Assembly: GCA_051294905.1 (NCBI GenBank)
Contig: CM119371.1
Location: forward strand, 11,658,001-11,722,000
Direction: 5' to 3'
DNA length: 64,000 nt
DNA from: Botryllus schlosseri
Lineage: Eukaryota
The number at the start of each line of letters is the position of its first letter. Within the stretch, counting starts at the first letter, position 1. The position numbers and the translations under genes were made by a program. A model generated the notes under the pieces. It made no database searches, was not told the origin of the DNA, and saw only the letters and a program-made list of their open reading frames with translations. Below are positions 18,650 to 51,499 of this stretch, one piece after another.

Positions 18650-21600
18650 ATACCCCAGTCGACTCCGAAGTTTGGGTTGATCCAGACGAAGAAAGGTTAG
18701 TAGCATTTGCTTCGTGGAGTAGATATACAGTACATGTCATTATACGATAGCTCTACCGAATCAATGAACTCTTTTTAAACTAAATTATCTCGTGAAGCCA
18801 GTTCCAATTAATAATAAGTTATGTTGCTCCATCATAAGATCAGTCACTACACGCTTTTGACATCCTACCCACTGCTTCAGTGCTTAATATTACCTATAAA
18901 ATAAGTAATTTGCTTGTAACTTTTTTTCTGTTCATTTTTAAGAGTAAGTTCTATGGAAGTGAGATAGAAACATGTTGCTTCTGCGTCTTTTAAGCCCAAA
19001 ACTGACTTTCTAGTGTAAGCGGTTATCAAGTTATTATGAAATTAGCTATTTTCGGATCGTTTGGTGAAATTACACGACCACTAGAGGGTGTACGAACACA
19101 TGCCAAGACCCTTTTTTGAAATTCAATAATTTTCATTTTTCACTCCACCCTAAACTCCAATACTCTTGCCTGAAGGTCTGTTAACAAAAAGACAATGCAT
19201 TCTAAAATCTGAGCTAGTGAAGTATTTCTTTTCTCATCTAGGATTGAAATATGTCATGTCATGACTAGAGCCCCCCCCCCCCCCCTCGATTATCAGTTTG
19301 CCGATAATAGCCACTCGATCTGACACTTTGCGAGAAATGTCGGTATTGGCCGTTAGAGGTCAAAAAGTATTGGCAATATTCGTTTACTTCCATATTGTTC
19401 AGATTCAGGCTATTTTGCTTTTTTCATGCCGTAGCTTGACAATGGTTGTAAAGCTGAAGGTTTTGAAGTGCGATTTTAAAATTGGATGTGATGTCGGAAT
19501 TATCGGTGAAGGTGTTAGGGCTGGGCACAATGATTCGAATATAAATTTTGATGATTCGAGTTTTTAGAGTACTGAAATGATACGCTCCACGCCACTGAAA
19601 GTCAATTTATCAACGTGAATTATTGTTTCGATACTAATTTTCACTTTTGAAGCCTTGAAACCTTGATTGGCCGTATCGTAACATACGAAACATATGGTAA
19701 AAAGCTACTGGAGATAGCACATTTCTGAATTCATGATCATCCCACAACATTGTCACCGAATGCAATGAAATCGGTATGGTCGGAAAAAGACCAAAGCATC
19801 TGAAATGTGATGGATATTCTTTGTGGTCGTATGAAGGGTACATATTTGAACTTTGACATTTTTCATTATGTTATGACGTCATAATGAGTGATATTCGATT
19901 ACTCGACGTGAAGCATATTACGTGATTCAGAATCGAATCACTCAGGTACTCGATTTTGCCCAGCCCTAATCTGATTACGGCGGGACTCGAGTCATTTATC
20001 ATGACGTTGAGAACACCTGCACTCATTCTACCGAATTGTGCTGTGCCATATTCGATTTTTCCATTCAAATTGAAATAAGCTTAATGTTTGGACAAGCTGT
20101 ACACTTCCACCCGGTTCAGTTTTGAGCTGCTTACAATAAACGAGACTTATGTCTTTCTACAGTTCAACGAACCCGCCAGATCTGGATAACTTGCTTGGCC
20201 AGGTCGTGGGTGATCTTTTCGGGGGTATGGGCATTGTGGCGGAACCTCCGCTGCAAGCGCAGCCATCTTCACTGCCTGCAGAGACAACTCCGCTGCCTGC
20301 AGAGCCTATTACGCGGCCTGCAGAGACAATTCCGTTGCCTGCAGAGACTATTACGCGGCTTGCAGAGACAATTCCGTTGCATTCAGAGCCAATTACGCGG
20401 CCTGCCGAGACAATTCCGCTGCCTGCAGAGCCTATTACGCTGCCTGCAGGGCCATCTGCGGTATCCACTGAGCCATCTTCATCGGCAGGGCCCCCGCTGC
20501 CCGCATTGGATGCCCGCAAGATGAAAAAAACACAAGAGGTGAGGTCTATTGTAGATTACTTTACCTTTTGGCAATTTTTAGTTCTCTCGGGCAGTGGTTC
20601 TCGACCTTGGCCCCGCGAATCATTTTCAGGGGGTCCACGAAACCTCTAAATTTGCAACACAATTCACAACGTAATTTGTAATTCTCAAAGCTAGGCAAAT
20701 TGTAAGGCAGTTTCGCTTCATAACTGCTAAAGCGTCAGGACTCACAGCAACTGAATGACCTTCTCCGAGGAAACATCCTATATCCTGTGCAAACTCATCA
20801 ATTAGTATGATGTTATTTTCACGAAAATTCATTTTGTGGCTGTTTCTCACAAGCCTATACAGTTAACATTTGCGCGAGATAGATGACGGTTGCACGATAA
20901 TTGGGCTAATTTTGAACGAATACTTGAGGTCCGCGGAGGTCTGTCAAGGTCCAAAAGGGGTCCACAATGACTGCGAACCACTCCCCTTTCTTCAAAACAA
21001 CCCCCTTTTTCTCGGCTGGCCAAGCGCCTGTTTTGTGGTATGTTCGTTTGCATCACCTCAAAGTATGAAATATGCTGCGAAATATATGTGTTACGGTAAC
21101 TAAATTTATTTTCGAAAATTACTACAAGTCATTTTTCGTTATTCGCAGGTGTGAGAATAGCCTGATCGCCGGGTCTGCCACGCGGCCAAAGGAAGAGAAA
21201 ACAAAGCGACGTTGTCTTTTGTTGGCGAAGACGCGCATAACCGAACAGCTTTCGAAAAGTGAGTCCCACAACAGGAGTATAGATTGCCAACGTAAGGATA
21301 GATATGCAGCTCCAGTTATCACGCACGCACAATGTGTTTGACTGCTGAGCCTGGGCAAAAGCAGCATTGTTGATAGTCCTATAGCTGGCGACCAGAGTGC
21401 TAAAATTGATTAAAACAGATCTTAATCGAAAGCTAGTGTTGCACTTTCGTCGAAAATACAAATTGAAATCTGGCCAGTGTATTAAAACCAGAGTTGGATC
21501 AATTGTAATTTGTAATTGAGCTGAATGTATTTAATTACATTTTTTCATGTAATTGTAATTGAAGCATTTCTATTTTGTGTAATTATAATTTGATCAAAAT

Positions 21601-24600
21601 TTTGCTCAATTACAATCTCAATTACATTTTCATGGAAACCTGACAATCACAACATAAAATAATCATTTAATTAATCAGTTATTCGTCGCACCAGTGAAAA
21701 TCTGGTACGAACCAGGACCTTAAGGCTTTAGTAAACAGTCACCACATGTAATAATTAGCCTATTTACATCGGTGTTCTATGCGTGCTGCATTATAACTAG
21801 ATAATTCAGTCACGCTAAACTATTTCCCATACTTCGGTAGCAACAGAAAACTTTGTGAATTACAATATAGGCTAAACCACTGGTTCTCAAACTGGGGGCG
21901 TGCCCCCTTGGGCGGCGTGAAAGCATCTGAACGGGGTGCGACGCTCCAGTGAGCTGAAATCTTTTCCACTTTTGGCCCGATTCACCTCCGTTTTGTAGTT
22001 ATTGCTTGGTGTATAGTCTGAATTTCGTAATGGAGAATGCTCTCATCAATAGTCATAATCTTCCATACCATCAAACTATATGTAAAAATTGCTAACTTTG
22101 TGGTTTTATTGTGTGCTATGAAGATAAGGGGGCACGAAATATCCACTGTCATAAAGGGGGGCGTGTCTAAAAAAGAACCAGTGGGCTAAACTAAATCTTA
22201 ATATTTCAAAAATGGATGAACAGCAAATAAACTATTCTGAAATCTGTGCTGAACTATTTCCTACACCACGGTCAAAGTTTCTTTTTTAATCTCTGACGAG
22301 TACCGAGGCTTGTTGCAACAAAAGCAAAAAAAATCATGTTTCCAACCAAGGCTTCATCAAACTTGATCACGCATTTGTAGAGATGCTGTCCCAATCTTAC
22401 CTCCAATCTTGGCCAATCTTACTGTTGCCAGAAACTTTTTGCACCCTAATGTTCATCAAATGCAATCTAACAGTTTTCGAGCAAGTGAAAATGTAAATGC
22501 AAACCAAAATATTGTAATTCTTCGTTATCAGGAGGTTCTTTCCTTTTGCATTTATTTTAATTTTACGCACCTTATCGGAATCTCGGAATCATCCTTATCG
22601 CTGACGCCCTACCAATTACATTTCCTTATCCTGACCTAGCTCTGAGTAGCCTAATCGTTTGGTTACATTTCATTGACTGTCCTGTAGCCTATTTGCTTTA
22701 GTCGCTCAAACCTCAAGTAATGAATACTCTGTTCAGCTTCTCGGATTCGGAGACTGCCGCCAAGTGGCTCCGACTTGGAAGTCGAGCGCATGACTGCCAG
22801 GCGAAAGACCAAGCGGATGAAGAGGCCCCTGTCGCCATCATCCGAATATGAAGGAAAAGGTTAGAATTAGATTACTCTGGTTCAATTAGAGTACTGAAAC
22901 ATTTCACAAATCAGATTGGAATTAGATTGTTTGCATTTCGCTCTAATTTAGTGAAATTAGATCGCTAGAATCATCAAGTTGTCCCAGTCTGTCTGAGACG
23001 AATGTGGTCATAATTGGCTGATTCGTGGATATTAACTTGAAATTAGTTGATAAGCCTAGACACTAAATTATCATGGAAGTGCGTCATGTTCTACATCCTT
23101 AGATGCTTCGTGCCAGCCTGGGTTCTTCTGATACTCATTAATCCAAGCAAAGTTACAATATGGCATCCTTTTTTGCGGCTGCCAGTAAAACTGACCTATC
23201 GATCTCGCATCCCATGACATGCCGTCTTATTTCTTGTCGCTTTCTTTTTCTATACTATATTCTTTACTTTCATTCAGTGTGCATGCCTACTCTTTACATC
23301 ACCTAGGCCAAGCGGGGTGTCTAATTCCGTAGACTACTTCTAGTCACTTCGACATCTTCCTGTCTTTTCGTTGTATCGCATTTTTTGTGGTGTATTGAAC
23401 TGATAAAATTGATAATAAACCAATGATGATGATGATGATGATGTGGTACGGATATAACACTGGGACCGAAAATTCTTGAAAAATTCTCATATATGTCATT
23501 CAAAAGCCGTGAACATTTTTCTTTGTGACCTTCAAAACGACCTATCCAGACCCAGTAATAATTTCTAAGTTGAAGTGTCGGGCCTGTATCGGGCTGTATA
23601 ACAACATATATTTTTCCTGCTTAATACCATGATTGAGTGGACTCTTTTCAATTCAATTACAAAATTTATAACGTGTGGGGTCGATGATGACATAGCCAAA
23701 TCAAGCAGCATAGTTCGACTAACTTATCATTTAGCTGCAGAAACGCGTCTACATACAGAGAGGCTGTATTTCATAAGCAACTACGGTATTTTATCGCTGT
23801 ACCGAGCTATTCGGAAGTCGAAATGTTTAGTTATGGACGATATGACTTAGGGTGGAGTGAAAATAAGGAGGGTTCGTAAGTCCTGACAAATGACCTAAAA
23901 CTTCAATAGAAATTGACGTTGGGGAATTGCCCATTTCGACAACTACTGGCAGTACAGTCATGATATAAAGCTCAAAAGCTGCCAAAAACATTATGTTTCT
24001 ATCTGTCTTAAGAAAGTTATGTCTATTGTGAACGCAGAACGAGTTATAGCATAAAAACACTAAAATTTTTAAGCGGGTAAATAGCGGGAGTAATGAAGTT
24101 GCATGTTAGTTGGATTAACACTAGAAAAGCTAAATATATCAATCTCATGTAAAAGCTCAATGTTTAGAGCTGCTACTACATCAATCTTTCGATCAGGCTC
24201 GCGGGCGACCCATCTAGTCATTTCGGGCTACCTGGGGCTCCTGAGCACGGCATTGGTGATCCCTTATCTGGTTGCCGGTGAACCCAGCCCTCGGTGAACC
24301 CAGCCTTACGAACGCGGCCCTCGGTGAACTCGGCCCTCGGGAAATTTTGTATTCACGGATTGAGTAAGCGGGGGAGATAACACGACGCTCACATACTCTA
24401 CTTGTTTATTTTGTGGTATTCATGGCGTTTCTCGAATACTATGGACCTCGGTGAATTCCGGCCCCGAACAATTTTGAATTAAAGCTGGGAGCTGGGATAT
24501 TAGAATTGGCGGAGGTATAGGATATGAGGGTTGGTGGAGGTGGGAAATTGGGTTGGTGGAGGTGGAGAGGGGATATTAGGGTTGCCGGAGGTGGGATATT

Positions 24601-27600
24601 AGGGTTGGGGGAGGGGGGATATTAGGGTTGGTGGAGGTGGGATATTAGGGTTGCCGGAGGTGGGATATTAGGGTTGCCAGAGGTGGGATATTAGGGTTGC
24701 CGGAGGTGGGATATTAGGGTTGGGGGAGGGGGGATATTATGGTTGGTGGAGGTGGGATATTAGGGTTGCCAGAGGTGGGATATTAGGGTTGCCGGAGGTG
24801 GGATATTAGGGTTGCCGGAGGTGGGATATTAGGGTTGGTGGAGGTGGGGTATTAGGGTTGCCGGAGGTGGGATATTAGGGTTGGGGGAGGGGGGATATCA
24901 GGGTTGGTGGAGGTGGGATATTAGGGTTGGTGGAGGTGGGATATTAGGGTTGCCGGAGGTGGGATATTAGGGTTGCTGGAGGTGGGATATTAGGGTTGGG
25001 GGAGGGGGGATATTATGGTTGCTGGTGAATACAAAATTTTCCGAGGGCGGAATTCACCGAAGGCTGGGTTCACCAAGGTCCGAGTTCACCGAGGGCCGAG
25101 TTTGTAAGGCTGAGTTCACTGGTAATCGTCATAGATCCATATTTTCGAAAGTCGCACGTCCGTCCCTCGCCAAGTCAATTCAACAATGAGCCAAGTTCCC
25201 AAGGGCCGAGTTCACCGAGCGCCGAGTTCACCGAGGGCCGAGTTTGTAAGGCTGGGTTCACTGGTAATCCCTTATCTAGAATATGGCTGTGGAAAGAGAC
25301 CCGAATGGTCGTCGAGCCCCCAATGTTATTATCCATTCACCATAATACGTATGTACCCTCAAATGTGTTAGCTTGAGCCTAAATCGAAACATCTTCTCAT
25401 GCCAACGTTTGAGTTAATATCTATTCTATATTTCCAAAGAGGTGACAAAACATTATTGTTTGGCTTGGCGTAGCTTAGAATATAGTACACGGCAAGAAAA
25501 TTTGGAACAGTATGACGCGGACTTGGTTACAATCCTGCTTGGAATCATGTATTGCAAAGCTACAAATTACTTTTTTGGTGTGCGTCAGTGATCATAATTT
25601 TGGAGGTGGCAAACAAGATACATTTTTTCAACTTTCAATAACTTTCGTACTGTTATGGCGTCACAATGAGAGATACTTGAATACTGGACTCGACTCCTAG
25701 TACTCAATTCAGAATCGAATCACTTGATGCAGTACAGTCATGGATATTAATTTTTCAATTTTAAAATTGACGTGCAATGGGGGGATGGCATAATTTGCTT
25801 TTATCGTGCCTGTTTACGATCTGCTGTGTTTGAAATGAGCTTCTCAACTAGCATTATTTTTTTTTACAGTGCTGCCTGATGGAAGAGGGAGTAGTAGACC
25901 TAAATCTTATGGGGGAAATTGTGCGATTGCCGACGAGGTCGCGGGTAATCTTTTCGGGGGTATCGGGATGGTGGCGGAACCTCCGCAGCGAGCGCAGTCA
26001 ACTTCGCTGCCCGCAGAGCCGGTACCGCGGCCTGCTGAAACAATTCCGCTGCCATCCACGGACACCACAGAGGCATCCTCAACGACAGCGCCCCCGATGC
26101 CCACATCGGATGCCGGCAAGGTGGAAAAAACACAACAGAGGTGAGGTCTATTGTAGATTACTTAACCTTTTGGCAATTTTGAGTTCTCCAGGGCAGTGGT
26201 TCTCAACCTTCATTTTCAGGGGCTCTACGAAGCCTCTAAATTTGCTACACGATTCACAACGTAATTTGTAATTTTCGAAGCTAGGGAAATCGTAACGCAG
26301 TTTCGTTTCATAACTGCTAAAGCGTCAGGACTCACAGCAACTGAATGACCTTCTCCATAGAAGCATCCTATATCCCGTGCAAACTCATCAATCAGTATGA
26401 TGTTATTTTCACGAAAATTCGTTTTGTGGCTGTTTATCACAAGCCTATACAGTTAATATTTGCGCAAGATAGATGACGGTTGCCCGATAATTGGGCTAAT
26501 TTTAAACGAATACTAGAGGGGGTCCGCGGAGGTCCGTCAAGGTCCAAAAAGGGTCCACGATGACAAAAAGGTCGAAAACCACTGAATTAGAACATCGTGT
26601 TTGCGAACCACTTCCCAATCTTCAAAACATCCCTCTTTTCTCGGCTGGCCACGTGCCTGTTTTGTGGTATGTCGTTTGCATCACCTCAAAGTATGAAATA
26701 TGCTGCGAAATATATGTGTTACGGTAACTAAATTTCTTTAAAAAAATTACTACGAGTTATTTTTCGTTATTCACAGGTGTGAGAATAGCCCGATTGTCGT
26801 GACTGCCACGCGCCCCCAGAAACAAAAAACAAAGCGACTTTGTCTTTTGCTGGCGAAGGCCCGCATAAACGAGCAGCTTACGAAAAGTGAGTACCACAGT
26901 AGGAGTATAGATTGCCAACGTAAGGATAGATATGCAGCTCCAGCTATCACGCACGCACAATGTGTTTCACTGCTGAGCCCGGGCAAAAGCAGCATTGTTG
27001 ATAGTCCTATAGCTGGCGACCTGGGTGCTAAAATTGATTGCAACGGGTCTTAATCGAAAGCTAGTGTTGCACTCGCGTCGAAAATACAAATTGAAATCTG
27101 GCCAGTGTATTGTAACAACCTCAAAATAGCCCGCAATATCTGAACATCGGGATTGTTCCTAACAATCACTCTGTTGAATTTTCATTGATGTGGTTATTTT
27201 GTTGTTGCGTCGTTCTTGGATTAGTTAGTTGGCCGCCGACCAGGGTTGTAATGACTCGAGTCGCGATTTTCTGATGACTCGACTTGACTCGAGTCATTTT
27301 CTCAAAATACGGTAATGACTTGACTCGATGGTTAACGTTCTCGTGTTCGAAATTTCATGCTGGTGACGTCATATTTTACGATACGATTGTCGATATACCA
27401 TGTTCTTTCCAATTATCTGCTAGTTGCTGACGATTACCCCAGATGAGTTTCAGCCTAAAATATTTGAATACTCTGTTAAGATTGCCGTACTCGGATTCAG
27501 AGATCGCCACCAAGTGGCTCCGACTCTGAAGTCAAGCAGATGCCCGCCAGGCGAAAGACGAAGTGCATGAAGAGGCCCCTGTCGCCATCATCCGATGATA

Positions 27601-30600
27601 GCGGGCCCGCGTCAAAGCGTGGTACACCTGAATATGAAGGGAAAGGTCAGAATTAGATTGCTCTGGTTCAATTAGAGTACTGAAACATTTCACAAATTAG
27701 ATTGGAATTAGATTGTTTGCATTTCGCTCTAATTTAGTGAAATTAGATCGCTAGAATTATCAAGTTGTCCAAGTCTGTCTGAGACGAATGTGGTCATTAT
27801 CGGCTAATTCGTGGATATTAACTTGAAATTTGTTGATAAGCTCAGACACTAAATTATCATGGAAGTGTGGCATGTTCTACATCGTAAGACGCTTCCTACC
27901 AGCCTGGCTTCTTCTGATACTCTTTAAATCAATAATCAAAGTTACAACATGGCATCCTTTTTTTGCGGCTGCCAGTAAAACTGCACTCGAGCCGCTGCAA
28001 AAACTACAATATAACGTACTCAATGTGGTCAATATTGGCTAATTCATGGATATTAACTTGAAATTTGTCTAGTAGTCTGTCAGATATGGCCCGATGCCAA
28101 ATGTGATGACAATGCACGGTTTTACAGTCACTATTGTATCGTATCCTTGCGATGATCGGATTCAATCTTTTTTCATCCCTTTCGATCATTAATGACATAT
28201 TTTCTACATCTTGCTTTTTTGATTTTCAAACAGCTATCAAAATGCAATGACGTAATTATGCTTTGTTCTTATAATAATTAACTAGACTTGAATTGTGACT
28301 TGACTTTAGTCACCATCAAGAATCGATTGACTTCACTCTAGTCAAAATGTGCGATGACTCGAAGGTGACTGACTTGATCCCGATACTGACACCTACACGC
28401 GTTCATCAGTCACTCCCAATTCAGAGACATATTCTAATCGGTGCAAGGTCAGGTAACAGTTACAATCTAGCGCCTGGATCTGGACGCTACAACGATAACA
28501 TTTTAAATTCTAGCATGAGTCGGAATACTGCCATCATGTGAAGTTTCCGCACAGATTGAACTCATTCCTTGTTTAAGAAACTTCATATCTGTTTGGCAGC
28601 TTCGCAGCCTATGGTGTCTAGTACGGTAGCGGTGCTTTTCAACGGTAGAATTGATACCTGAATTAGTTACAAGTACCCAAAACATTTAGTTACCACGCCT
28701 TTTCTGATCTTGGGTGGAAGATGAGTGTTTTTTTTACAGGAGACAACATATCGTGTACTATGACCGATGCTGGTATGACATATCAATCATGTAGCCTTGG
28801 AAATTCTGGACAACAAAAGTCAATTGCAAAACCATCGAAAGATCGCAACGTATTACGGAAGCCAAAAACAAGAGCTGCTGGGAAGTCGAAGCCGGCAAAG
28901 TTGTCCAGGTGAGGTTGTGATAAGTAGCTTTGCCCTAAGCTTTGCCCTGGGTTATAATCTTTCGTTGATATGACATAAGCTTGAAATGGCCGCTGGGGAC
29001 GGTAGCCTACAGTAGGGTTTATCGAAAGTATTATTTTTCTCAAAGTTTACTGACTATAGTTGGTAAATTGTTTGCTTGGATGATAAAATCTCTGACCATC
29101 AAATTTGACTCATTCCCAACCTGTAGAGGCAAAGCTATTAGGTGAACATTTTGGATTGTGATTTTTTTGTCAAACCTGTCTGGCTACACCGTGAGATTGT
29201 TAGGTTGTACGAGAAAACAGTCCAAAACAAATCTTGCCCAACTCCAAACTTTGGAAGAGAAATTATCAGGGTGGAAAAATTTGTATTTAAAGTGAATAGT
29301 ATTTACGTGTGTAATTACTTTGATTGCAGACCCGTCTCCAAGGCCGGCACAACACCATCTTCGGACGACAAACACCAGCAGGCAAGAAGGCGTAGGACAT
29401 TGGTGCCCCGGATTCCATCACCTGAAGAAGAAGGCGGAGGTCAGTGTTAGATCACGCTGGCCCACAGTAAGGCTGGACACAATGATTGGAACAGGGTTGT
29501 AACCAAGCCACAAGGCTTTGAGTCACAAGTCAATCTCACTTTTATAGTTTTGACTTGAGTCAAGTTGAGTCTTTTTCAATTCACCACCGAGTCAAGTCCG
29601 AGTTCAAGTCAGCGAGCAGAGGGTCGAGTCCAAGTCCAAGTCATTGTGTTGACTGCTCAGTTTCCAGTTGAAATCTTGTTAAACCCACTTTTTATAACTG
29701 TGGTGATATCGTATGGTTTGCATTTCTAATATATTAATTTTTCTCACTTTAAACAGTTTCTGGTCGCATTTTCAAGAGCCGGTACCAATTGACAAAATCC
29801 TAATAGCGTGGTTACTTTACTATTCTTTGAAAGCGCAATGAATCAGGCATGGTCGAAAACATATGAGATGACCTTTACTGTGATTGATGATATACGTAGG
29901 TGGAGCCAAACATCGTCACTCCGCAGCAGTATACCACTGTAATGTGTGATGGGTCGGTGACATGGGGTCAGGGGAGGCAAGTGAGGCAGTGCCTCACCGG
30001 TCTGCTAGATTTTGAATATATTTACTATCAAAATCACGCAACTTGCTTAGTTATTATTTGAAAATAAAGCATGAAAGGAGAGGTAAGACATCGGTGAGGC
30101 ACTTCCACGGCATGCCTTACCTATGATAGCGAAATTCAGCGTAAATATCATAGAATTTATAATAACTGATATCATTCGAATGTAATTGTCGCACTGATTC
30201 CAATTAGACTGCTCAATTCTTAAAGTATTTGGCGGTAACATAACGTTGCGAATTTTTAATTTTTAATGTCACTTCCACGGCAGTTCATTTCTCGTCGTAG
30301 ATCAGGAAGACATTGTGTATTTGAAAACTGCATTGTGATGCAGGCGCCGCCATGTCTCCTAGTGTCTTCGATCAATAAATGCATCGCGCAATTCAAGATT
30401 TCGTGGCGGGTACTTCAAATTCTGTAGTGATATTGGTCTCCGGCGCGACAGCAACTTAAATTTGAGGAAATGGGCCCGAGCCCCTAGCCCTGAATACGCC
30501 ACCGTATTAACATCTCAGGGACATGTTTGTACCTTAAGCGGTGATCAGATTCAATCTTTTTCTACCCGGTTCAATCATAAATGACATATCTTTTACATCT

Positions 30601-33600: not shown

Positions 33601-36600
33601 TGTAAGGAAACAGACCAGAACAAATCTTGCCCTATTCCAAACTTCCAAGAGAAATTATCGAGGTAGATAAAATTATATGTAAAGTGAATAGTATTTACGG
33701 TGGTAATTACATTGATTACAGGCCTGCCCGCAAGGCTGGCACAATACCATCTTCGGACGACAAAGACCAGCAGGCACGAAGGCGTAGGACTTTGGTTCCA
33801 CGGATTCTGCCACACGAAGCAGAAGGTGAAGGTCAGTATTAGATTACCCCGGTCAACAGTAGTGCTGGACACAATGATTCGAACAGGGTTGTAACCAAGT
33901 CACAAGTCAATCTCACTTTTATAGTTTTGACTCGAGTCAAGTCGAGTCATTTCCAACTCGCCACCACTTTCCGCCCCCTTCAGATGCTTTCACGCCCCCC
34001 CCCCCCGGTGTCTTGTACGGTTGCGGTGCTTTTCAACGGTAGAATTGATACCTGAAGAACAAGTACTCGAATCTTTTAGTTACCATCCCTTTTCTTATCT
34101 TGGGTGGAAGATGAGTGTTTTTTTTTACAGGAGACGACATATCGACTCCTATGACCGATGCTGGTATGCCATATCAGTCATGTAGTCTTGGGAATTCTGG
34201 GCAACAAAAGTCACTCGCAAAACCATCGAAAGATCGCAACATATTACGGAAGCCAAAAACAGGAGCGGCTGGGAAGTCGAAGCCGGCAAAGTCGTCCAGG
34301 TGAGGTTGCGGTCGATAAATAGGTTTTGGCCTGGGTTGTAATGACTCGAGTCGCATTCTTTTGTTGACTCGGCATAAGTTTGGAATGGCCGCTGAGGACT
34401 GAGGACGGTAGCCTACAGTAGGGTTTATCGAAAGCAATTATTTTTCTCAAAGTTTACTGACTATAGTTGATAAATTGTTTGGTTGGATGATAAAATCTCC
34501 GACCATCAAATTTGACTCAGTCCCAACCTGTAGAGGCAAAGCTATTAGGTGAACTTTTTGGATTGTGATTTTTTTTTCACAACTTTCTGGCTACCCCGTG
34601 AAATTGTCAGATTGTATGAGAAAACAGTCCAAAACAAATCTTGCGCAATTCCAAACTTCAGAAGAGAAATTATTGGGGTGGAAAAATTTGTATTTGAAGT
34701 GAATAGTATTTACTATGGTAACTACATTGATTACAGGCCTGCCCGCAAAGCCAGCACAACACCATCTTCGGACGACAAACACCAGCAGGCACGAAGGCGT
34801 AGGACATTGGTGCCCCGGATTCCACCACTCGAAGTAAAAGGCAAAGGTCAGTATTAGATTACCCAGGTCCTCAGTAGGGCTGGACACAATCATTCGAACA
34901 GGGTTGTAACCAATCACAAGGTTCCCAGTCACAAGTCCATCTCACTGTTATAGTTTTTCAATTCACCACCGAGTCAAGATCGAGTACAAGTCGGATAGTA
35001 GGGGGTCGAGTTCGAGTCCAAGTCATTATGGTCATTGGTCAGTTTTCAATTCAATTCAAACCAATTTTTCAACTCTGCTCCAATGATATAGAATGGCTCG
35101 CATTCATAATATCGTATTTTTTCTCAGTCTTAACAGTCTATGGCCCTATGTTCCAAGTATCAGGATTGATAAACGAAATACCAATAAGGTGGTAACCTTA
35201 CTATTCTTCAAAGTTACAAATGTCTCTCTTGGCCGTCCCCGTCTCGAGTCATATGACTAGGTTCGAGTCACGCACAATGACTCTAGTCGAGTCGTGTCCT
35301 TTTATGCATCTGAAAAAATGACTCGACTCGAGTCACCATAAAATCATGACTTGAGCCGGACGCGACAATCCAGAATATACTGCATGTTGGTTTTGCATCC
35401 CATTAAGGTCATGTTTCACCGCTTGAAAAGTGCTTCTTGAAGGTACAGAACTTCAATACATACTTCAATAATTCAATTGAATATAATATTCATAGTGAAA
35501 TGAACCCGAATATTTTCGTGTGACACTCGTCAGGGTTAACGGTCTACTTTTGTTGACGAAGGCTCGGTCTGTGTATTTTGATAAAATTCACGCTTTCAGA
35601 CGTTTACCTTAATTTTCCAAGTATAGTACGCCCCCATGTATAATACGTACCCCTAAAATTGCATGTAAATTCTGTGAAAAAGCCTGTACCCATGTATAGT
35701 ACGCACCCTGCATTTCAGTACATCCATAGTTCCGATTTTGTATACGATGTCATTCTGTCTTGCGATGTCACTCTTGAACAATCATTACAGGACGATCGCT
35801 AATCATTATACAATTAGCGGGATTGTCTTTAAACAATAGTAGATAGCGGCCAAAGCCTGCGAGGTCGGCGGCGAGTTAGTTTAGGCCAACGAACCGACAT
35901 CTTGCGCTCGATGCCTATTACAGATGCGATTGCGCCTAGGCTAACGGTTATGTCATGCGACTGATTATGCAAGCGATTATATCATGCGCACATGGCCTCT
36001 TGTATATGCCATTGTTCGGGCCTGTCGTTGACGCGATGAATTGGCGAGAATTGCTGCGCGCGACTGTCTATTACTGACCTCATTTCGCTCTCGTACAAAC
36101 GGCAAACCAACTCAGCAGGAGATCGCGTGATTGTGCACACGGCACTCGTTAATTAGCAACGCGCTTCCCTTAATTGGCAGCGCGTCACACTCTATAATAC
36201 GAATTACTACCCGCGATGGCTGAAAGTGATGCGCGAGTGGAAACAAACATGAAGAAAGGTGTGATTTCAAGTTTTTTTATCGAGGGAGATTTTTTCAAGC
36301 GTGTTGTTCCCATGTATAATACGCACCCCCCGATTTTAGGGCAAAAAATCGTGTAAATTTTTGCGGATTATACATGGAAAATTACGGTACGTCTCATTGG
36401 TGTGTCTGGTCCCAGTCGACTTTTATCAAAATGCATCAACCAAGCGTTTGTCAACAAAAGTAGTTTTTGTGCCATCGAAAAGTAGTATAATGGACGCTCT
36501 CGTATGCGAAAATTCATGCTGGTGACGTCATATCTTGTGATACAATTGTCGATAGACCATGTTCTTTCCGATTCTCTACGAGCTGCTGACAATTACCACC

Positions 36601-39600
36601 CTGACGAGTGTCAGCCGAAAATATTCGGGTTCATTTCAGTATGAATATACTGTTCAATGGCGTGTTGAAGATGTGTACCTCCGAAAGCTCTTAGCGCCAA
36701 CGAGAATGTAATTTCAGCACTCGACTCGAATCATAAGAATGAATGAATGCTGTGTTCAGATTCCCGGATTGGGAGATCGCCACCCAGTGGCTCCGACTCC
36801 GAAGTCGAGCAGATGCCCGTCAGGCGAAAGATCAAGCGCATGAAGAGGCCCCTGTCGCCATCATCTGATGATAGCGGGATCGCGCCAAAGCGCGGCACAC
36901 CTGAAAACAAAGGCAAAGGTCAGTATTAGATTACGGCGGTCAACACCAAATTGCTTCTGAGACCAGACTTGTACGACTAAGAAATGTTCGGCTTTCCAAA
37001 TTAGATTAGAATTAGAATTGTAGATACTCAAATTATTTCTATTAGATTACAATTATAATTAGAGCTACACATTTTTCCAAATAAGATTAGAATTACAAGT
37101 AGAAATACATATTTTTTTCCAAATTAGATTCGAATTAGAATCAGAAATAAAGTTTTTTTCAAATTTGGATTAGAATTCAGGTTGGAGCTACACATTTTTC
37201 CGAATTAGATTGGAATTGGAGTTAGAGCCAGGGCTTTGGAGCCGGAGCTCTACATAAAATTCAGCCGGAGCTAGAGCCTGTTATTTGAGGAGTAGCTCCG
37301 GCACCAACGTATTTCATAAGATGCTATTATATATGCAACCACTACATCTGCTGATGTATCATAATTGAACAGCAGGCCTGAATTTTAATTCTGAGACAGC
37401 AATGGCATAGAATAAAGTGCGTTGTAGTGCAACTATGATGTTGTCGACAATTGACAAGTATTCATCATAACGTCACAAGCCAGCACGGCGGCACCTCAGA
37501 GATGAGCGGATTTGAAATTTCTATGTCCTAATCCAATCCGAATCCGAACTTAAAATCCAAATCCTAATCCATACCTTTTTCATATTCAAGTCCATGTCCA
37601 ATCCTAATCCGATTCCAAATGGAAATTCAGAAAAAATACTAATTGATGCAATGGAGGGATTCGGAAATTATTTTTCACAACCAACGATTCACTTGATTCA
37701 AGATAACTTAGTAACCATAAGTACATTAATAAAGTTTGTCGCCATTCGCCACACGACATTTCAATCCCCCAGAAAATAGTTAAATCCAATCCAAATTCTG
37801 ATCCGTTCTGAAAAAAAATGTCACAAGGCTTTGAGTCACAAGTCAATCTCACTTTTATAGTTTTGAGTCATGTCGAGTCATTTTCAATTCATTACCGAGT
37901 CAAGTCCAAGTCAGCGAACAGAGTTCAATCCTGTTCAATCCACTTTTTTTCAAATCTGCCTGACTAATAAAGAACAGCTCACATTCGTTATATATTCATT
38001 TTACTTAGTCCTAACAGTTTCTGACCCTGTTTTCCACGTATCAGGACTGATAGACGACATACCAATCATGTGGTGACTTTACTATTCGTCCAAGTTACAA
38101 TGTGATGTTTGTCTCGGCCGTCCTAGTCTCGAGTCATATGACTTGGTTCGAGTCATGCAAAATGACTCGAGTACAAGTCGAGTCAAAGCACAAATTGACT
38201 CAAGTGATGTCGAGTCATTTTACGTATTTCACTACTCAAGACTGGGTAAACCAAGATCGTAATTTCAGTATAATTTCGAAGAATAGTAAAGTTACCATAA
38301 TGTTATTGCTTCGTCTATCGGTACTGGTACTTGAAAATGCGACCAGAAACTGGTAAAAGTGAGGAAAATTAGTATATTATGCATGTGAATCATTTGATAT
38401 CACCAAGCAGATTTGCAAAAAGTATATTTGACTTGACATTTAATAATCGTAACTGAACAGTCAACATGCGCATTGACTTGGGCTTGACACTCTATTCTTT
38501 GGACTCGGACTTGACTCGGTGGTGAATTGAAAATGACTCGACTTGACTCGAGGTAAAACTGTAAAAGAGGGATTGACTTCTGACTCGGAACCTTGAGACT
38601 TGGTTACAACCCTGCTAAATTTACGTATATAAACAAGATTTCAAAGTAAATACATTTTTGGTCAGTTTATTAGTAGTTTTTGTCCACGCAATAACATTGA
38701 TACATAGATTTTATGGTTTAAATTCCTACGAACTTTTTGCAGACCGCTCAGAAGTTGGTAGCGGACCGCATTTGGCTCGTGGGTAGCATAATGCCCAGGT
38801 CCGTGTTATCATATGGTACCCTAGCAGTGGTCGGATGCAAGCCCTTCGCAGCTGGTTCTATTACAAATGTCATATTTTTCAGCATGTTCAGGTGAAAAAA
38901 GTCCTGAATGGTAACCAGTAATGCTGACCCATTCGCTTATCCCATAAAATCACGTGAAACCGATCTTTGGAATCGGTGCAAATGGGCAGAATCAGACCAC
39001 CGCCTAAGTCCATTTGTAGAAGTTAGCCATTCATGTAGGCCTACCCTATAAGATAGCGGTGCATTTTATCGGGAGATTTAATTCATGATTCAGACACTTT
39101 AGCTTACTCGAACCATTTCGTGCAGCCCTAGTTACCACGCCTTTTCTGATCTTGGGGGAGTCATGAGCATTTTTTTTACAGGAGACGACATATCGTGTAC
39201 TATAATCGATGCTGGTAAGCCATATCAGTCATATAGTCTTGGAAATTCTGGACAACAAAAGTCACTCGCAAAACCATCGAAATTACGGGAGCCAAAATCA
39301 AGAGCTGAGAAGTCGAAGCCGGCCAAGTCGTCCAGGTGAGATTGTTGTCAGTAAATAAGTTTTGACCTGTGTTGTAATGACTCGAGTCGCAATTTTATGT
39401 TGACTTGACTCGAGTCATTTTGTGTATTTGTGACATAACAATGAAAGGTACCTCGAGCAATTCAACACTGACGCGTGACACACGATTTCGGACAAGTTAA
39501 TAACATTAGCAACAATTCCAACATAGTTCGAACGAGCGTGTGGTTGATGCGGTGATTGCTTTCCACGAGAGATTACACATCCTTTGTAACAAATTCCGAC

Positions 39601-42600
39601 CCTTTATACATGGGATTTCCAGCCTCTGGGCCATAGCCATTGAGCTTTTTAAGGGGGTACATGGGAAAGTTAACAAATCTTTATCGCCAAGTGTATTTTA
39701 CAATAAGAATTTGCATGATTTTACTACTGTATATTAAAGATGAAGGACGAATGGTCCTTTGTATCACCTAACCAGCAATTACCGTCATTTTTCATGTATA
39801 ATGCGCAAAATTTTCCGATTTTTAGTCCTAAAATGGGGGGCGGGGCGGGGGCGGGTGCGTATTACGCATCTGTATGAGTCTTGAAAAATTCTCCCTCAAA
39901 ATAGATCTTGAAATCACACCTTTCTTCATGTTTGTTTTAATCGCTCATCACATTCAGCCATCGTTTCCAGTAATTTGTATTATAAGTGTTACGCACTGCC
40001 AATCAGCGTGAAGCCTGTTGCCAATTAGCGAGAGACGTCTGCGCTGCACCACAGCAAGCGAACTCCTGAGTGGGTTTGCCGTTTGTACAGGAGCAAAATT
40101 AGGTCAATCCTTGCCAATTTATCGCGTGTACCAATATATTTTAGGGTGCATACTATACATGGGTACAGGCTTTTTTCCCAGAATTTACACGCCATTTTAA
40201 TGGTGCGTATTATACACGGTATATACGGTAGGACGTTTTCAGAGCAAAAACAAGCTCAACCATTACTGCAGATGTAATTACTAATTTTTCTCCATCACAT
40301 TTGATGTGTGTTGTATTGTAGGGAAAGTCATTACAGTAGAGAAATTTGGATTTGAAGTAAATAGTGTTCACGGTGGTATTTACAATATCTATAGGTCCAC
40401 CCGACAAGCTAGCGCGAAACAGAAAAATCTTGGTAAAAGGAAACGCTCACCATCTCCAGATGATGGCTGCGAGATTGCAACCAAGCGCCGAACTTTGGCG
40501 TCCGGGAGGGCCAAATCGTCCAGGTGAGATGGGGCCCTGAGTTGTGATGACTCGAGTTACAATTTTTTGTTGACTTGACTCGAGTCACATTTTGTTGGAC
40601 ATTGAAAATGACTTGAGCCACATTGTGTATGAACTCGACTAAGTGATGTGACCCGAACGACTCGACTTGACTCGAGTCGAATTTTCAAAAGCGTAAAATG
40701 ACTCAATTCGAGTCAACTTTTCTATTGACTCGACTTATCGTCAAGTCGTTGTGCGTGACTCGAACCAAGTCATATGACTCCAGAGTAGGACGGCCGAAAG
40801 AAGAAATTTTGTTGTAACTTAGAATAATGGTGAAGTCACCACATTACAGGTATTTCGTCTCTCAGTCCTGATACTGGGAAAAAATAGGGCTTGAAGCTGT
40901 TAAGATTGAGGAAAAATCACGATATTATGAAAGCGAGCCATTCTATATCACTCGAGTAGAGTGGAAAGTGGGCTGAACTGGATTGAACTGAAAACAGAAC
41001 AGGGACCGTAATGGCTTGGACTAGGACTCGAGTCAATACACTATGTCTTGGATTCGACCCTATGCTAGATCTGACTTGGATTCGGACTTGACAAGGGGGT
41101 GAATTGAAAATGACTCGACGTGACTTGAGTCAAAACTATGAAAGTGAGGCCGGCCGACTTTTCAGTGTAATTTCGAAAAACAGCAAAGTAACCGCATTAT
41201 TGGCATCTCGTGTAGCAGTACTGGTACTTGAAAATTCGACCAGGAACTGTTAAAAGCGAGGAAAATTAGTATGTCATAAATGCGAACCATTCGATATCAC
41301 CAAACAGAGTTTAAAAAAGTAGGTTTAAACAAGACTTTAACCTGAAACTGAGCACTGAGCACTGAGCAGTCAACACAATCTCTCGGACTCGTCCCTCTTC
41401 TTGTTGACTCGGACTCGGACTTGACTCGGTGGTGAATTGAAAACGACTCGACTTGACTCGAGTCAAAACTATAAAAGAGATATTGACTTGCGACTTGGTT
41501 ACAATCCTGCAACAATGTCAAAAAGTTCAATTGAAATAGTAATGGTCTAAAACCTACCTGATAATATTTGATGTGATGTGGAAATAAGATTATATTCTTT
41601 GTGGTGGCATAAAAAGGTACATAACTGAACTTTTCCCATCATTCGTTATGTTGTGATGTCGTAATTAGTTATATTCTATTCGAAGCCTGATATTCTATTT
41701 CGAATCAATCACTCGAGTACTAACCAAGAATGAGTTTAACAAGACTTGAGTTTGAGACTTAACAGTGAACAGTATGACTTGGACTGAGACTCTAGTCTCA
41801 ACACTATAGCTCAGACTCAATCCCTTGCACCCCGACTTCGACTCCTACTTAGTCGGTAGAAAATGTTTCGACTTGACTCAGTCAAGACTGTAATAGTGAG
41901 ATTTAGTGAGACGTCGTCTTATTTTCTAGGAAACCCGTCGTAGCTGCTACCACTGTGGAAGAATTTCCAGGTAAGCTTCAGGTCTTAGGCCCAATTTTAG
42001 GGGATTGGAGATTAACCTTGGCATTAATATTCATGTTGTTCTTCTCTAATCCATATATCACGGGTCGCTATCTCGCCTTGTGGAAATGACCGTCTCACTT
42101 GAAATTTTACATGCAAACGTACCCCAAAAAAGTCAAAATATTCGTATTTTTTTTCTGGTACATAATATTGACCTTGTATCCCTGCTGTCACCTCATGGCC
42201 TTATTCCACGCAAATAATAACTGAAAACTCCGAAATTTCAATAACATAATGGAGCTGTGTGTTTTTTTCAAGTTACAACCAAAAGATCACATGTTTCGTC
42301 CGATAACCCTATAAAATATATGGTTTGACCGTTATAAAACATATCTATCTATATTATCTCTGGGTGAAAATTGACTTCTTACCTTTCAAATGTTTGATAA
42401 TCGTTTTCTCGGATGTAAAATTTTGTTACGTAGCATCACTTTTGCAAAGCTGAGATTCAGACCTGTGCTATGCTTAAAGTTTTTATTCATAGTCTGCCAT
42501 CTCAAGAGGTTCAGAAAATCGCAGTAAACTTACAGCGAATTGTTGACAAAAAAAGGGATTTTTAAAATTTTTTATATTTTAAAATCAAATTTCTCTGAGC

Positions 42601-45597
42601 TGGGTTGGGCGCAATCCTTGAAATTTCAGCATAGGATAGCGCTGTCCTAGTACTTCCTGAAGAGGGCGTTAGATCGGGAAAGGGACTTCACGATATCGAG
42701 ATTTTGCATTTCCCGTATCGGTGCATTTTCTGTCCTTGAAACCAAGAAATCCACAATTTGCATGGTAGAACAAAATATTTTAGTTTTTTGTTTATAGCAT
42801 AGCGACGTCTAGCAACTGTGAAAATTTCATGGGTATCGAGGTAGCCATCCAAAATTTAGGTTTTTTGGTTGCTAGTCCCCTTAATAATGAGATTTAACTT
42901 AACTTTATGCTCTGCGATCAACCGGTTTACTTTATCCTTGGTTGATAAATCCTGACGAACGCGATAATCGACTCCATTGCTAACCCAACTTTATTATCTC
43001 CGCCCTAAGTTGATAGTATAAGTTATTCCGGAAAATAGTATTCGGTCCAAGTGCAGGACTCCCCTGCTATAAATGGTGAATTAAACGCCGATATTAGAAT
43101 CTAAAAACCAATGGCGTCGAAATATTTGAGCTGATACACCTGAATTTAACCCTTTTTTTACAGTTCCGACCGTATCCAATCCGAATGGGCTCCGAAGGAG
43201 TCAACGGGTTCGATTACCAGTAACCCCGGGCGTCCGGTACGGTCTTCACTATTCGTAAGTGAACAGCGAGTGCACTAGGGTTGTTCGAGAGCACCTTTTA
43301 TTGTCAAATTTTACTGGCTACTTGCTAAAATCTTAGAGTTAACCAAAAAAACGGCAAAAAAAATTCTTACAGTATTAACCATATAATTAGCCGCTTTGTA
43401 CACTATTTTTGTATTCTGAAATTTCCTGTTCCACATAGAATAGGGTTGCTCAAAAATGAATTTTTTCCATATTCCAGCCATCCGCCGATTAAATTGTCGG
43501 TTTACCCAAAAAAATCAAAAATAATCCGGGAATTACCAACGAAAACTCAAATAACTCGCCTTCTACTAGTTGAAATTGAGTCAAATTTGTTATGCATGGG
43601 TTTTGAAGACAACTCAACAATTTCACGGTGCTGACAAAAGAATTTGAAAATACTTTTAAAATATATTTGATAAATTATAAATTTGAACTGACTCTGCGGC
43701 GGCTTATACTTGTAATAATTGAACCAAATTTGGTGTGCAGTGTTTTTAGGGTAACCTGACAATTTAATCGGTGAATGGTTTGAATCAAGAAAAAAAAAGT
43801 AATTTTTGAACAGCCCTGACCTATAGCTTTGCTTCTAATGGTTGAAATTGAGCCATTTTTTTGTACACAGCTAAACGATTTCATCGGGTATCCAGTAAAT
43901 GTTGGTGAAAAGTTTTTCTGTGCATTCAAAATTTTCTAACCAAATGATGTGCATCGTTGTTTTAGCCGGTAAAATTTGGAAAAGGTATTTTTGCCCTAGC
44001 GTGAATGTGTACCTGTCGGCTCCAGCTTATGTCTTTTGTGTTGTGCAGATCGGAATTCGACGATTATGGCTTCCGAAAAGTGATCGGAGTAAGGAAGATC
44101 ACTATTAACGGTATGCAGACGCGGTCCTGGTTGCATTCCCTGCGCATTGACACATCTCTTTTCTCAGATGATCCTAAGTTGCAAGCCGCAACGATACTGA
44201 TTAAGGGCTCTCGTCCCCGGAGAGTGAAAAAAGGGACAAAAATCAACAACCAGGGTATGCCGGCACATTCCTAGTTGCATTCTCTACACAATAACACAGC
44301 AGTGGGCAAAAGTGGGCACCAACGCGCCACTGGGGGCGTTCACGAGCGTGAAGGAGGCTGTGTCCATGAAATGGGTGATTTGGGAGGTCGCTGGCTATAA
44401 AATTTGGCCGTAATAGGGCGCTTAGAGCAAATGGGGCGGTGTAGGTTTTGACTCAAAAACTGACAAATAATTACACGAAAAAAAACTTTATTTTAACGAA
44501 ATCTGGCTCTATGAAGAATTCCAGTAGTTACATCACATATTATGGTAGGAGCGATTGAAATTTGTTGTAGTACAAAGTTACTAGGTAACTAGCCAAGAAT
44601 GGAAAAAGAACGTTCAACAGCAGAAGTTGCTGGCTAACAACACTAAAGCTGAGCGTACACTGCTAGTGACAAACTGTGTTGCTTCATTCTGACAATGGTG
44701 TCCATATCACAATTTTTCATCATGCGCTTCTTGATATAAGAACTATGCAATGACCACGCAGTCTTCCGTAAGTTAGGATACTGCGGTACGTTTAGCATGA
44801 CACCATCTCATATTATTTGTTTCATTGGAATGTTTATGATACATAATGACCGCCTACAACAGCAGGCCTATAAAGTAGGCTAAAAGGTGTAAAATGTCAT
44901 ATGATAAGTTCACCGACAGTGCAAAATCTGCGATACAAGCAAAATGCGGGTTGCTAGAAAATCTTGATTTTGTAAAAATTTTGACATTTTTTGACCTAAC
45001 GCTACAATTTTGACTTTTTTTGACACGTCAAAAAAAAATCGCCGCATTGATAAATAAAGCAGCTAAATACGCAGTAAAAATGCAAAACCGAATATGTCAA
45101 GGCAGTTTAGGGTTGCCCGTCCTGCCCATCAATGTACTAATTCAAAAGTCAGCAGAATCCCTAGAAGGTGTGGTTCATTGTGACATTGCCTGTCTTGGCA
45201 TGCAATGCCAGTGGTGGCCTAATTTGCCTTTATTATGCTTTGTTTACGATCTGCTGTCTCTGAAATGAGTTTCTCATGTATGATTCTTCTTTTACAGTGC
45301 TGCCTGGTAGGAGGGAGTAGTGGAGGTAAATCTTATGGGGGAAATTGTGCGATTACAGAAGAAATCGCAATTCCAAATCCCCCGTAAGAATCTCTACTCC
45401 CTCCGAAACCCTTCGGAGACAAAAGATGCCGTTCCATTTTGTGTAATGTGCATGGAGTGAGCTAAGGATTTCATGTTATGCTGTGCGATGGCTGGATGGG
45501 TCTGACTGTTTCTGTTTCATGTCCCGAACTTTCATGTTTTCATGTCAGCAAAAAATCTGATCAACCAACTCAAATCAAATCGGCGATGACTGGTTGA
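18650..45597 (+). CDS. CENPC: Multi-exon CENP-C-like (centromere protein C) gene with internally duplicated exons; 5' start not resolved; possibly a derived or decaying paralog
   Basis: GT-AG exons: 18650-18695, 20163-20538, 21149-21258, 22737-22859, 25870-26140, 26777-26886, 27481-27645, 28740-28908, 29330-29439, 31153-31321, 33722-33831, 34131-34299, 34737-34846, 36760-36918, 39182-39335, 40395-40523, 41930-41970, 43164-43254, 44049-44110, 44168-44254, 45298-45456, 45549-45597. Phases match with no stops from 21149 to 44254. Contains PNGLRRSQRVRLP...Y...DYGFRKVIGV and a cupin-like EGVVEVNLMGEIVRLQKKSQFQIPRKNLYSLRNPSETKDAVPF. Confidence 0.68.
19516..19968. mobile_element. MITE with TAGGGCTGGGCA termini (hAT-like)
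   Basis: TIR TAGGGCTGGGCA/TGCCCAGCCCTA with GATTCGA-type subterminal motifs. No clear TSD. Confidence 0.6.
20270..20450 (+). repeat. Coding 21-bp minisatellite (PAETIPL/PAEPITR heptads) inside exon 20163-20538
   Basis: About 8-9 tandem units of CCTGCAGAG(A/C)CNATT(A/C)CGNNG. Confidence 0.85.
24270..25268. mobile_element. MULE-like non-autonomous element carrying a G-rich minisatellite
   Basis: Inverted termini GGTTGCCGGTGAACCCAGCC/GGCTGGGTTCACTGGTAAT with repeated AACTCGGCCCTCGGTG motifs. 9-bp flanking direct repeat CCCTTATCT at 24261-24269 and 25269-25277. Confidence 0.75.
24495..25025 (+). repeat. 23-24-bp G-rich minisatellite (GGAGGTGGGATATTAGGGTTGCC)n
   Basis: About 20 tandem units with variants such as GGGGGAGGGGGGATATTAGGGTT. 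Confidence 0.95.
25935..27110 (+). repeat. Intragenic segmental duplication of ~20200-21482 (continues as 27465-27985, a copy of 22720-23195)
   Basis: Collinear exon and intron similarity, e.g. GTGAGGTCTATTGTAGATTACT and GAAATCTGGCCAGTGTATT occur in both copies. Confidence 0.93.
31607..33567. mobile_element. hAT/Charlie-like MITE containing two tandem TAGGGCG-family MITEs (31749-32634, 32643-33399)
   Basis: Outer termini CACTGGTTCCCAAAC/GTTTGAGAATCACTG with degenerate TSD CTTTACTG/CTATTCTG. Inner termini TAGGGCGATTTT/AAAATCGCCCTA, with GTTATGAC present three times. Other inner-family copies at ~44.45-45.05 and 58.26-58.64 kb. Confidence 0.85.
35607..36387. mobile_element. Tc1/mariner (pogo/Tigger-like) MITE
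   Basis: TA-flanked termini CCTTAATTTTCCAAGTATA/TATACATGGAAAATTACGG. Related to 39782-40228 in opposite orientation. Confidence 0.75.
39782..40228. mobile_element. Tc1/mariner (pogo/Tigger-like) MITE
   Basis: TA|CCGTCATTTTTCATGTATAATGCGCA ... TGCGTATTATACACGGTATATACGG|TA. Confidence 0.8.
42000..42880. mobile_element. Kolobok-like non-autonomous element
   Basis: GGGGATTGG...CTAGTCCCC termini with TTAA on the right and a degenerate TTTA on the left. Confidence 0.5.
43273..44001. mobile_element. CACTA/EnSpm-like non-autonomous element in the intron after the CENP-C motif exon
   Basis: Termini CACTAGGG/CCCTAGCG with TG on both flanks. Confidence 0.45.
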
Positions 45598-45829
45598 AAT
45601 ATGGAAAAACTCCTGCAACCAATTGTCAGCACCTCTTACGCTCTGAACTTCATGCGTATTCAAATGCTTGAAGTTCAGCTCGTGATAGAAAGAAAGAAAT
45701 CAGAATCGGGACAAAGTAATTGCGACCAGCTGTATAAGAAAGATACGCTTGATGCCACAGGAAAACGAATTACTCGACTGAATTTCTACAGCTTGCTGAG
45801 GTATGGCTAGATAACTTTTCACTGCATCC

Positions 45830-51497: not shown

Positions 51498-51499
51498 AC

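Follow-up and report, generated by a model that had tools for sequence, protein, structure and literature searches.

CENP-C normally links centromeric chromatin to the kinetochore, and KNL2/M18BP1 have SANTA/SANT domains. Talbert et al. (2004, PMC549713) treat CENP-Cs as essential single-copy genes, and for grass Cenpc the same study (Talbert, Bryson and Henikoff 2004, PMC549713) describes recurrent tandem duplication or triplication of adjacent exon pairs, as well as a truncated grass pseudogene that carries exon-pair duplications. In animals, CENP-C duplication is described as rare (bioRxiv 10.1101/134817), and subfunctionalisation has been proposed for Drosophila Cenp-C1 and Cenp-C2 (bioRxiv 10.1101/134817; PMC12724597). 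Here we analyse a 64,000-nucleotide window of the Botryllus schlosseri genome (G000:C1:11658001-11722000, forward strand) that contains a CENP-C-like gene proposed in a first-pass annotation, with a middle that was expanded by duplication of exon blocks. We give roughly even credence to the reading that this gene is a cupin-less, CENP-C-derived protein-coding paralog, which would either have been kept by selection after the amplification or have died only very recently. Labels that combine a C-number with a coordinate or a value in Mb (C8, C11, C13 and so on) denote contigs of the assembly, the window lying on contig C1; C exons are always named as exons.

The chain of 18 phase-matched exons from 21149 to 44254 was reproduced exactly as first annotated, with AG and GT at every exon and no stop codon in 2339 nucleotides (nt; 779 codons). 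Exon boundaries were set from alignments of family copies that share acceptor and donor, and the exon families Y, A, B, C and D were named from open reading frames (ORFs) inside duplicated blocks. The translated chain has the composition that had been claimed for it, being rich in serine (11.9%), lysine (10.7%), arginine (10.4%) and proline (9.8%). Its RRSQRVR motif is present too, but is followed by about 60 further residues and so does not form the terminus, where it had been placed. A C exon has two split-codon bases at each end and a D exon has one at each end, so the frame is kept only if C and D alternate. The micro-exon X is the sole candidate with fitting phase and good splice sites within 40524-43163, and it also occurs, with an in-frame 6-nt insertion, at the closest paralogous ('sister') locus (C11:8876001-8916000), which is collinear with the window over 28-44.3 kb at 80-88% identity. 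The 57-nt intron between exons pre-a and pre-b has a donor and an acceptor that are conserved in an alignment of eight copies, and because the length of this intron varies among paralogs, reading through it would break the paralogs' frames.

The middle of the gene expanded through exon-block duplication. Self-BLAST of the window resolved the region into a patchwork of segmental duplicates, pairing 20387-21483 with 25996-27111 (84.5% identity), 22721-23193 with 27465-27983 (83.4%), 27465-27659 with 36744-36932 (84.6%), 28149-29175 with 30538-31599 (84.0%), 28613-29827 with 34007-35208 (81.6%) and 28687-28958 with 39129-39378 (80.1%). Within these blocks the exon copies retain their acceptors and donors, and the chain holds two A, three B, four C and three D exons together with the hybrid exon E. 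The intragenic expansion proposed at first pass is thus borne out; the duplications are not very recent, as the exon copies diverge by 7-16%. We envisage a lineage-specific CENP-C/Mif2 paralog built by segmental duplication of exon blocks, with two copies of Y-A-B, three to four of the C-D pair, a third B and one in-frame fusion that put the front of a cupin exon before a Y exon. This fusion is exon Y2, whose acceptor and first ~73 nt derive from the exon encoding the C-terminal half of the cupin (25767-25942 versus 45195-45368, 79.8% identity). The cupin-derived stretch is read in a non-cupin frame that happens to stay open, and it retains the 2 nt that are missing from the terminal cupin exon. 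Related exons also occur beyond the window: B-type exons were found upstream of the motif exon in other paralogs, and A-exon copies at C8:18038943 and C12:25798413. These A copies are among further copies of the A and B exons at C8:18028230-18039050 (minus strand, A then B, twice) and C12:25798413-25798508, which lie outside the motif- or cupin-bearing loci and form a third partial relative of the window subfamily. A transposon-borne origin of the C exon was considered and set aside, the six significant matches among the ten listed being five in the window and one at the sister locus.

The same patchwork bears on whether the chain is a single gene. It might instead be split among at least two transcription units (such as a remnant of the 5′ end, Y1-A1-B1, and a gene starting near Y2), or isoforms that use some of the repeated exons. 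Y2 marks the junction of two former gene copies, the 3-kb gap between 22.9 and 25.9 kb contains a G-rich 23-bp minisatellite and no exon, exon C2 must skip 2.4 kb to reach D2, and the phases permit many in-frame paths, as a C- or B-type exon can follow any D- or B-type exon. Against this, the B1-Y2 joint is in frame and open through 73 cupin-derived nt, A1 and B1 are constrained like A2 and B2 (ratio of nonsynonymous to synonymous divergence (dN/dS) of 0.44 for A1/A2 and 0.51 for B1/B2), and neither a promoter nor a first exon was identified for a second unit. We consider a division into several units or isoforms unlikely.

On sequence comparison, the locus belongs to the CENP-C/Mif2 family, with a kinship that is real but partial and that resides in the 3′ module. 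The peptide encoded by 45311-45460 matched the Pfam family CENP-C_C (PF11699) with an E value of 4.6e-6 and 27.2 bits over model positions 41-79 of 85; it falls just below the 29-bit cut-off because only these positions are present. A better match to a family other than CENP-C was looked for and none appeared, the next Pfam families being generic cupins at E 0.057. A family profile made from the window cupin exon and 11 exons paralogous to it in this genome matched the solved cupins of Schizosaccharomyces pombe Cnp3 (6o2d, 2.1e-8) and Mif2 (2vpv, 5.5e-6), as well as Mif2 7on1 and vertebrate CENP-C 7x85, 7by0 and 7xhn, and all 12 family cupin exons matched PF11699. Judging by these matches, the 45311-45460 exon is the C-terminal half of a CENP-C/Mif2 cupin. 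Searched against 1.84 billion representative proteins, the family profile gave 101 matches at E <= 0.001, which were mostly C-terminal in proteins of 400-900 residues. Ten of these were looked up: four, all from fungi, bear the name CENP-C homolog or Mif2/CENP-C-like; of two hypothetical proteins, one is clearly a spurious match to a repeat; and four are nameless. No annotated animal CENP-C was among the ten. The only close outside relative of the family's cupin C-half exon is P0001 (74 amino acids; 68 bits), encoded on a 2036-base Logan assembly contig and probably a partial sequence of this species or of a related one. Word searches among longer proteins matched neither the window cupin exon nor the exon that encodes the N-terminal cupin half in one paralog, and the species' own proteins seem to be missing from the collection used for them.

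The motif exon was compared with a hidden Markov model (HMM) built from the motif regions of 32 of the 102 retrieved homologs, and it ranked first among 2822 six-frame pieces of the window (E 0.009, 12.8 bits). The alignment covers model positions 4-14 only, so that of the CENP-C motif proposed at first pass the arginine-rich half (RRSxRV) aligns but the aromatic half (P-L-E-Y-W) does not; in the family consensus the arginines are followed by LPV..GV.Y. On the plus strand, the motif (43164) precedes pre-a and pre-b (44049-44254) and the cupin C-half exon (45298), the same order as at nine complete paralogs.

The cupin-like exon that had been placed behind the chain is indeed there, but it is out of phase with exon 18. 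In five complete paralogs, a further exon, conserved among them, separates pre-b from the cupin C-half exon. This exon has a TTACCAG acceptor, starts with two bases and ends in phase 0 at ATG followed by GTGAGT, making it phase-compatible both with pre-b (one base left over) and with the C-half exon (phase 0 after TTTTACAG). We scored the exons with a cupin HMM of 128 positions, built from 72 CENP-C/Mif2 C-termini. With both cupin exons spliced, three of the five paralogs align from positions 47-51 to 121-124 at 61-68 bits; the paralogs on C13 and C15, for which the scripted splicing truncated the C-half exon, score lower (41 and 39 bits). The window exon covers only positions 78-122 (44.1 bits), and adding pre-b gives 42.9 bits with the alignment still starting at 78, so that pre-b is no stand-in for the missing half. 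The spliced alignments indicate that the additional paralog exon encodes the first strands of the cupin (the N-half), an assignment that draws on this spliced test and is clean for three of the five paralogs. Taken alone, the N-half exon matched Pfam in none of the five members and gave nothing meaningful in the PDB, being too short or too divergent in isolation for such a match.

This N-half exon was found at nine loci in a genome search but not at C1:11.70 Mb, and it was absent from the window both by tblastn and by an HMM run over six frames (best E 1.2). Two candidates for a hidden copy were rejected: the match at +25135 (E 1.2) falls inside a tandem repeat with a 16-bp unit, and the ORF at 45014-45268 has only a weak visual resemblance (HMM E about 91). 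In addition, an alignment of seven copies shows that the window C-half exon, and no other, lacks 2 nt immediately after the conserved acceptor; this private deletion places a TAG at 45308-45310 in the cupin frame. Splicing pre-b to 45298 meets a stop after seven codons, and splicing it to 45311 (AG at 45309-45310) yields a 25-residue non-cupin tail that stops at 45385-45387. As every exon in the chain ends in a phase other than 0, the cupin frame is unreachable by canonical splicing. Judged from its reading frames, the window copy can no longer encode the dimerising C-terminal cupin.

A genome-wide search with PF11699 gave 23 matches, 14 above the cut-off; the highest reached 41 bits, and the window copy (27 bits) was among the weaker ones. 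The window cupin, pre-cupin and motif exons had 21, 22 and 23 genome matches, respectively, and grouping by place put the motif exon at about 17 loci; the window gene is not the species' single hidden CENP-C. Nine loci carry motif, pre-cupin and both cupin exons in order on one strand; at the other motif loci the genome searches, which give lower bounds, detected no cupin. The claim of a CENP-C or paralog therefore holds as family membership but not for the organism's kinetochore CENP-C, and it is very improbable that the window gene is the organism's unannotated CENP-C with a working motif and C-terminal cupin. The basic, disordered body and the right order of motif and cupin-like exon would fit such a gene; the absent N-half exon, a C-half that is out of phase and holds an in-frame TAG, the lack of a detectable N-terminal exon or start, and nine other loci with a complete module and CENP-C_C scores of up to 41 bits (versus 27) speak against it. 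Because it is one of about 17 loci, has no N-half exon, has a frame-broken C-half and has no start that could be found, the window gene is not the canonical CENP-C but a side-branch or a dying copy.

Other members of the family show rearrangements of their own. At C16:18565481-18568833, just downstream of a complete plus-strand module (C16:18555452-18562315), about nine cupin C-half exons form a tandem array on the minus strand with a period of ~560 bp, some open and some with stops. At C1:15.24, C1:15.59, C14:18.34, C6:14.58 and C4:13.94 Mb, two tandem copies of the motif and pre-cupin exons with near-identical scores are present, and no cupin exon was detected near any of these five loci; they resemble a cupin-less form that segmental duplication recently spread between chromosomes.

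Several lines of evidence point to evolution of the amplified exons as coding sequence after the amplification. Values of dN/dS among exon copies were about 0.4 (range 0.20-0.86). These indicate purifying selection and do not fit the positive selection expected under centromere drive. Five independent copy pairs pooled gave proportions of synonymous and nonsynonymous differences (pS and pN) of 0.20 and 0.087 (Fisher p 1.3e-4), and motif, pre-a and pre-b compared with the sister locus gave 0.38 and 0.10 (p 1.6e-5), with Fisher counts that use rounded Nei-Gojobori sites. The indels in exons are all multiples of three (12 + 3 nt in exon C4, 36 in B1 and 6 in B2), in contrast to many indels of other sizes in the 200-nt flanks of the exon copies. 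Disabled exons number 0 of 18 in the window chain versus 4 of 12 at the sister locus (p 0.018), where we found lost acceptors, frameshifts and an in-frame stop (in the E copy). In 4000 trials of a neutral simulation, which begins from the present sequence and leaves out indels, the chain stayed free of stops in 2.3% at 5% substitution and in 0.5% at 7%.

The approximations in the Fisher counts and in the simulation lessen the case for a gene kept by selection, and several further observations weigh against it. Neither a start codon nor a first exon was found; A1 contains no ATG, and its first codon depends on two bases contributed by an exon further upstream. An alignment of Y1 with Y2 reveals a 2-nt deletion just before the Y1 donor, owing to which Y1 ends in phase 0 and the Y1-A1 joint reads GTG TGA. 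The A exon is more diverged (0.164) than its flanks (0.07-0.10), an ill fit to simple constraint, and the closest paralog (C11:8.88-8.92 Mb) has a pseudogenic middle. All eight family-invariant columns are kept in the window cupin C-half, and thus the break may be recent, the entire gene perhaps having only just died. The aromatic second half does not occur at the spacing usual for the CENP-C motif. Finally, no predicted junction was seen among the 15 joints listed (of 45) for reads that make up 6-13% of each RNA run, a sample that is uninformative and gives no verdict on the junctions either way. In these four runs (X3, X5, X7 and X8), which bear the same species label, matches to 25601-45600 were almost all partial (1169/1171, 214/214, 910/916 and 1333/1347, respectively); the reads ran on into unlike sequence in the manner of repeat fragments, and depth in exon bins was 0-0.6.

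Much of this would also be expected of an unprocessed pseudogene, that is, a dead, rearranged copy whose middle is open only because the decisive defects are recent and whose constraint predates its death. Consistent with this possibility, the three independent defects (a frame-broken cupin C-half, a frameshifted Y1 and a missing N-half exon) sit at the gene's two ends, the start was not found, RNA support was none in the uninformative reads, and inverted exon fragments, one of them frame-broken, lie 3-6 kb downstream. The sister locus, with 4 of 12 exons disabled and an 8.2-kb exon-derived 21-bp array with shifting frames, shows such decay, and the dN/dS of old copies cannot date the end of constraint. 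On the other side stand the 18 intact exons despite 7-16% divergence of the copies, the roughly 2% of neutral trials that remain open at 5% substitution with indels uncounted, the exclusive multiples of three among exon indels compared with the flanks, and the contrast with the sister locus. We judge such a pseudogene a real possibility, though less likely than not.

The 21-bp unit of this array is the one that encodes a 7-residue tandem repeat in Y1 (8.5 copies, 20272-20449). At C11:8906433-8914681 it extends over 8.2 kb, and because the open frame switches register along the array, this appears to be a minisatellite that arose from an exon and not coding sequence.

If the gene is a protein-coding paralog, its product would be a 779-codon basic, S/P-rich and presumably disordered protein that retains the arginine-rich motif anchor together with the conserved stretch that follows and has lost the cupin dimerisation domain. 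The exons would be transcribed as a single unit and translated from an unseen 5′ exon or an internal methionine, and the protein might bind centromeric nucleosomes as a monomer through its arginine anchor, perhaps modulating or competing with full-length paralogs. More tentatively still, and in our view rather doubtful as a whole, the family may have expanded to include several cupin-less loci with a motif under purifying selection, the window gene being the most elaborate of them and a monomeric binder of centromeric chromatin that modulates or competes with full-length CENP-C, for example in the germline.

Features of the window and complete-module loci of the family (window positions unless a contig is given)
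Feature	Position	Strand	Remarks
Window	G000:C1:11658001-11722000	forward	495-Mb, 219-contig animal assembly
Y1	20163-20538	+	upstream Y-exon copy, outside the open chain
A1	21149-21258	+	first chain exon; 1 leading base completes a codon; no ATG
B1	22737-22859	+	B family; 36 nt shorter than B2/B3 (multiple-of-three deletion)
Y2	25870-26140	+	chimeric exon: front derived from cupin C-half, rest Y-type
A2	26777-26886	+	A family; dN/dS versus A1 0.44
B2	27481-27645	+	B family
C1 exon	28740-28908	+	first C of the repeated C-D exon pair
D1	29330-29439	+	D family
C2 exon	31153-31321	+	C family
D2	33722-33831	+	D family
C3 exon	34131-34299	+	C family
D3	34737-34846	+	D family
B3	36760-36918	+	B family
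C4 exon	39182-39335	+	C family; deletions of 12 + 3 nt, both multiples of three
E	40395-40523	+	hybrid: D-like 5′ part, C-like 3′ end and donor
X	41930-41970	+	41-nt micro-exon bridging the phases of E and the motif exon
Motif exon	43164-43254	+	CENP-C motif, …GLRRSQRVRLPV…; GTAAGT donor
pre-a	44049-44110	+	followed by 57-nt intron 44111-44167
pre-b	44168-44254	+	last chain exon; 1 base left over
Cupin C-half exon	45298-45463	+	family acceptor before 45298; cupin frame open 45311-45460, stop 45461-45463
Inverted pre-a + pre-b copy	48379-48701	-	86.2% identity; pre-b has a 1-nt deletion
Inverted C-exon copy	51169-51499	-	92.8% identity to exon C1; splice sites and frame intact
Complete-module loci	C11:18.50, C13:19.52, C13:22.93, C8:17.48, C8:19.45, C15:4.22, C17:0.13, C17:1.82, C16:18.56 Mb

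The window has a G+C content of ~40%, and an Rfam search found no RNA families in it. Remains of non-LTR (long terminal repeat) retrotransposons are present, and by visual inspection of the listed ORFs the 797-residue frame at 5574-7967 on the minus strand resembles the reverse transcriptase of a non-LTR retrotransposon. Between B1 and Y2, where there are no exons, the 23-bp minisatellite (24488-25021; 22.9 copies, 86% match) lies in a strongly G-skewed stretch (GC skew 0.31) and is flanked by 16-bp repeats at 24276-24340 and 25041-25244. A single dispersed repeat has copies at 31813-32569, 32674-33374, 44449-45043 and 58286-58634 (74-77% identity); copies sit within introns of the window gene, one of them accounting for the bulk of the intron that separates pre-b from the cupin exon, and the repeat is also found in the corresponding intron region of the C15 paralog.

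Compared with CENP-C, Mif2 and Cnp3 (PF11699; 6o2d, 2vpv, 7x85, 7by0, 7xhn), the window gene likewise has a long, basic and poorly conserved body, and in both an RRSxR arginine-rich motif precedes a CENP-C-type cupin at the C-terminus. It differs in having only the C-terminal half of that cupin, unreadable in frame, in the displaced aromatic half of the motif, and in being one of about 17 loci, as CENP-C is usually single-copy. For annotation, this means that the window locus should not be labelled the species' CENP-C, which is to be sought among the nine complete paralogs. In a limited literature search, no large CENP-C family turned up for any animal. A genome with about 17 CENP-C-like loci, among them exon-amplified and cupin-less forms in which coding constraint is still evident, would serve as a natural experiment for testing which parts of CENP-C can be separated and whether centromere proteins diversify by copy number besides sequence.

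The closest parallel for the amplification is grass Cenpc as described in PMC549713, in which, as in the window, exon pairs in the poorly conserved middle were duplicated with the frame kept. According to that account, the grass cases concern plants and two to three copies of one pair, in contrast to several amplified exon families in an animal here; the grass duplicates are under positive selection, unlike the window copies with dN/dS below 1; and plant CENP-Cs end shortly after the motif, unlike the family of the window gene (PMC549713). Drosophila Cenp-C1/Cenp-C2 are likewise a whole-gene CENP-C duplication in an animal, although there, by the published descriptions, two copies exist that are apparently full-length (bioRxiv 10.1101/134817; PMC12724597), compared with about 17 loci here, several without a detected cupin. 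M18BP1/KNL2 are described as carrying a CENP-C-type motif without a CENP-C cupin (PMC4830207; PMC9210943) and so offer a precedent for motif-only centromere binders. Their origin is different, as the motif, pre-a and pre-b exons of the window are homologous to cupin-bearing paralogs in the same genome. A monomeric cupin-less binder that arose in this way would, if real, add a new layer of centromere conflict or specialisation. What is unusual here, relative to these systems, is the scale of the family together with the recurrence of cupin-less copies.

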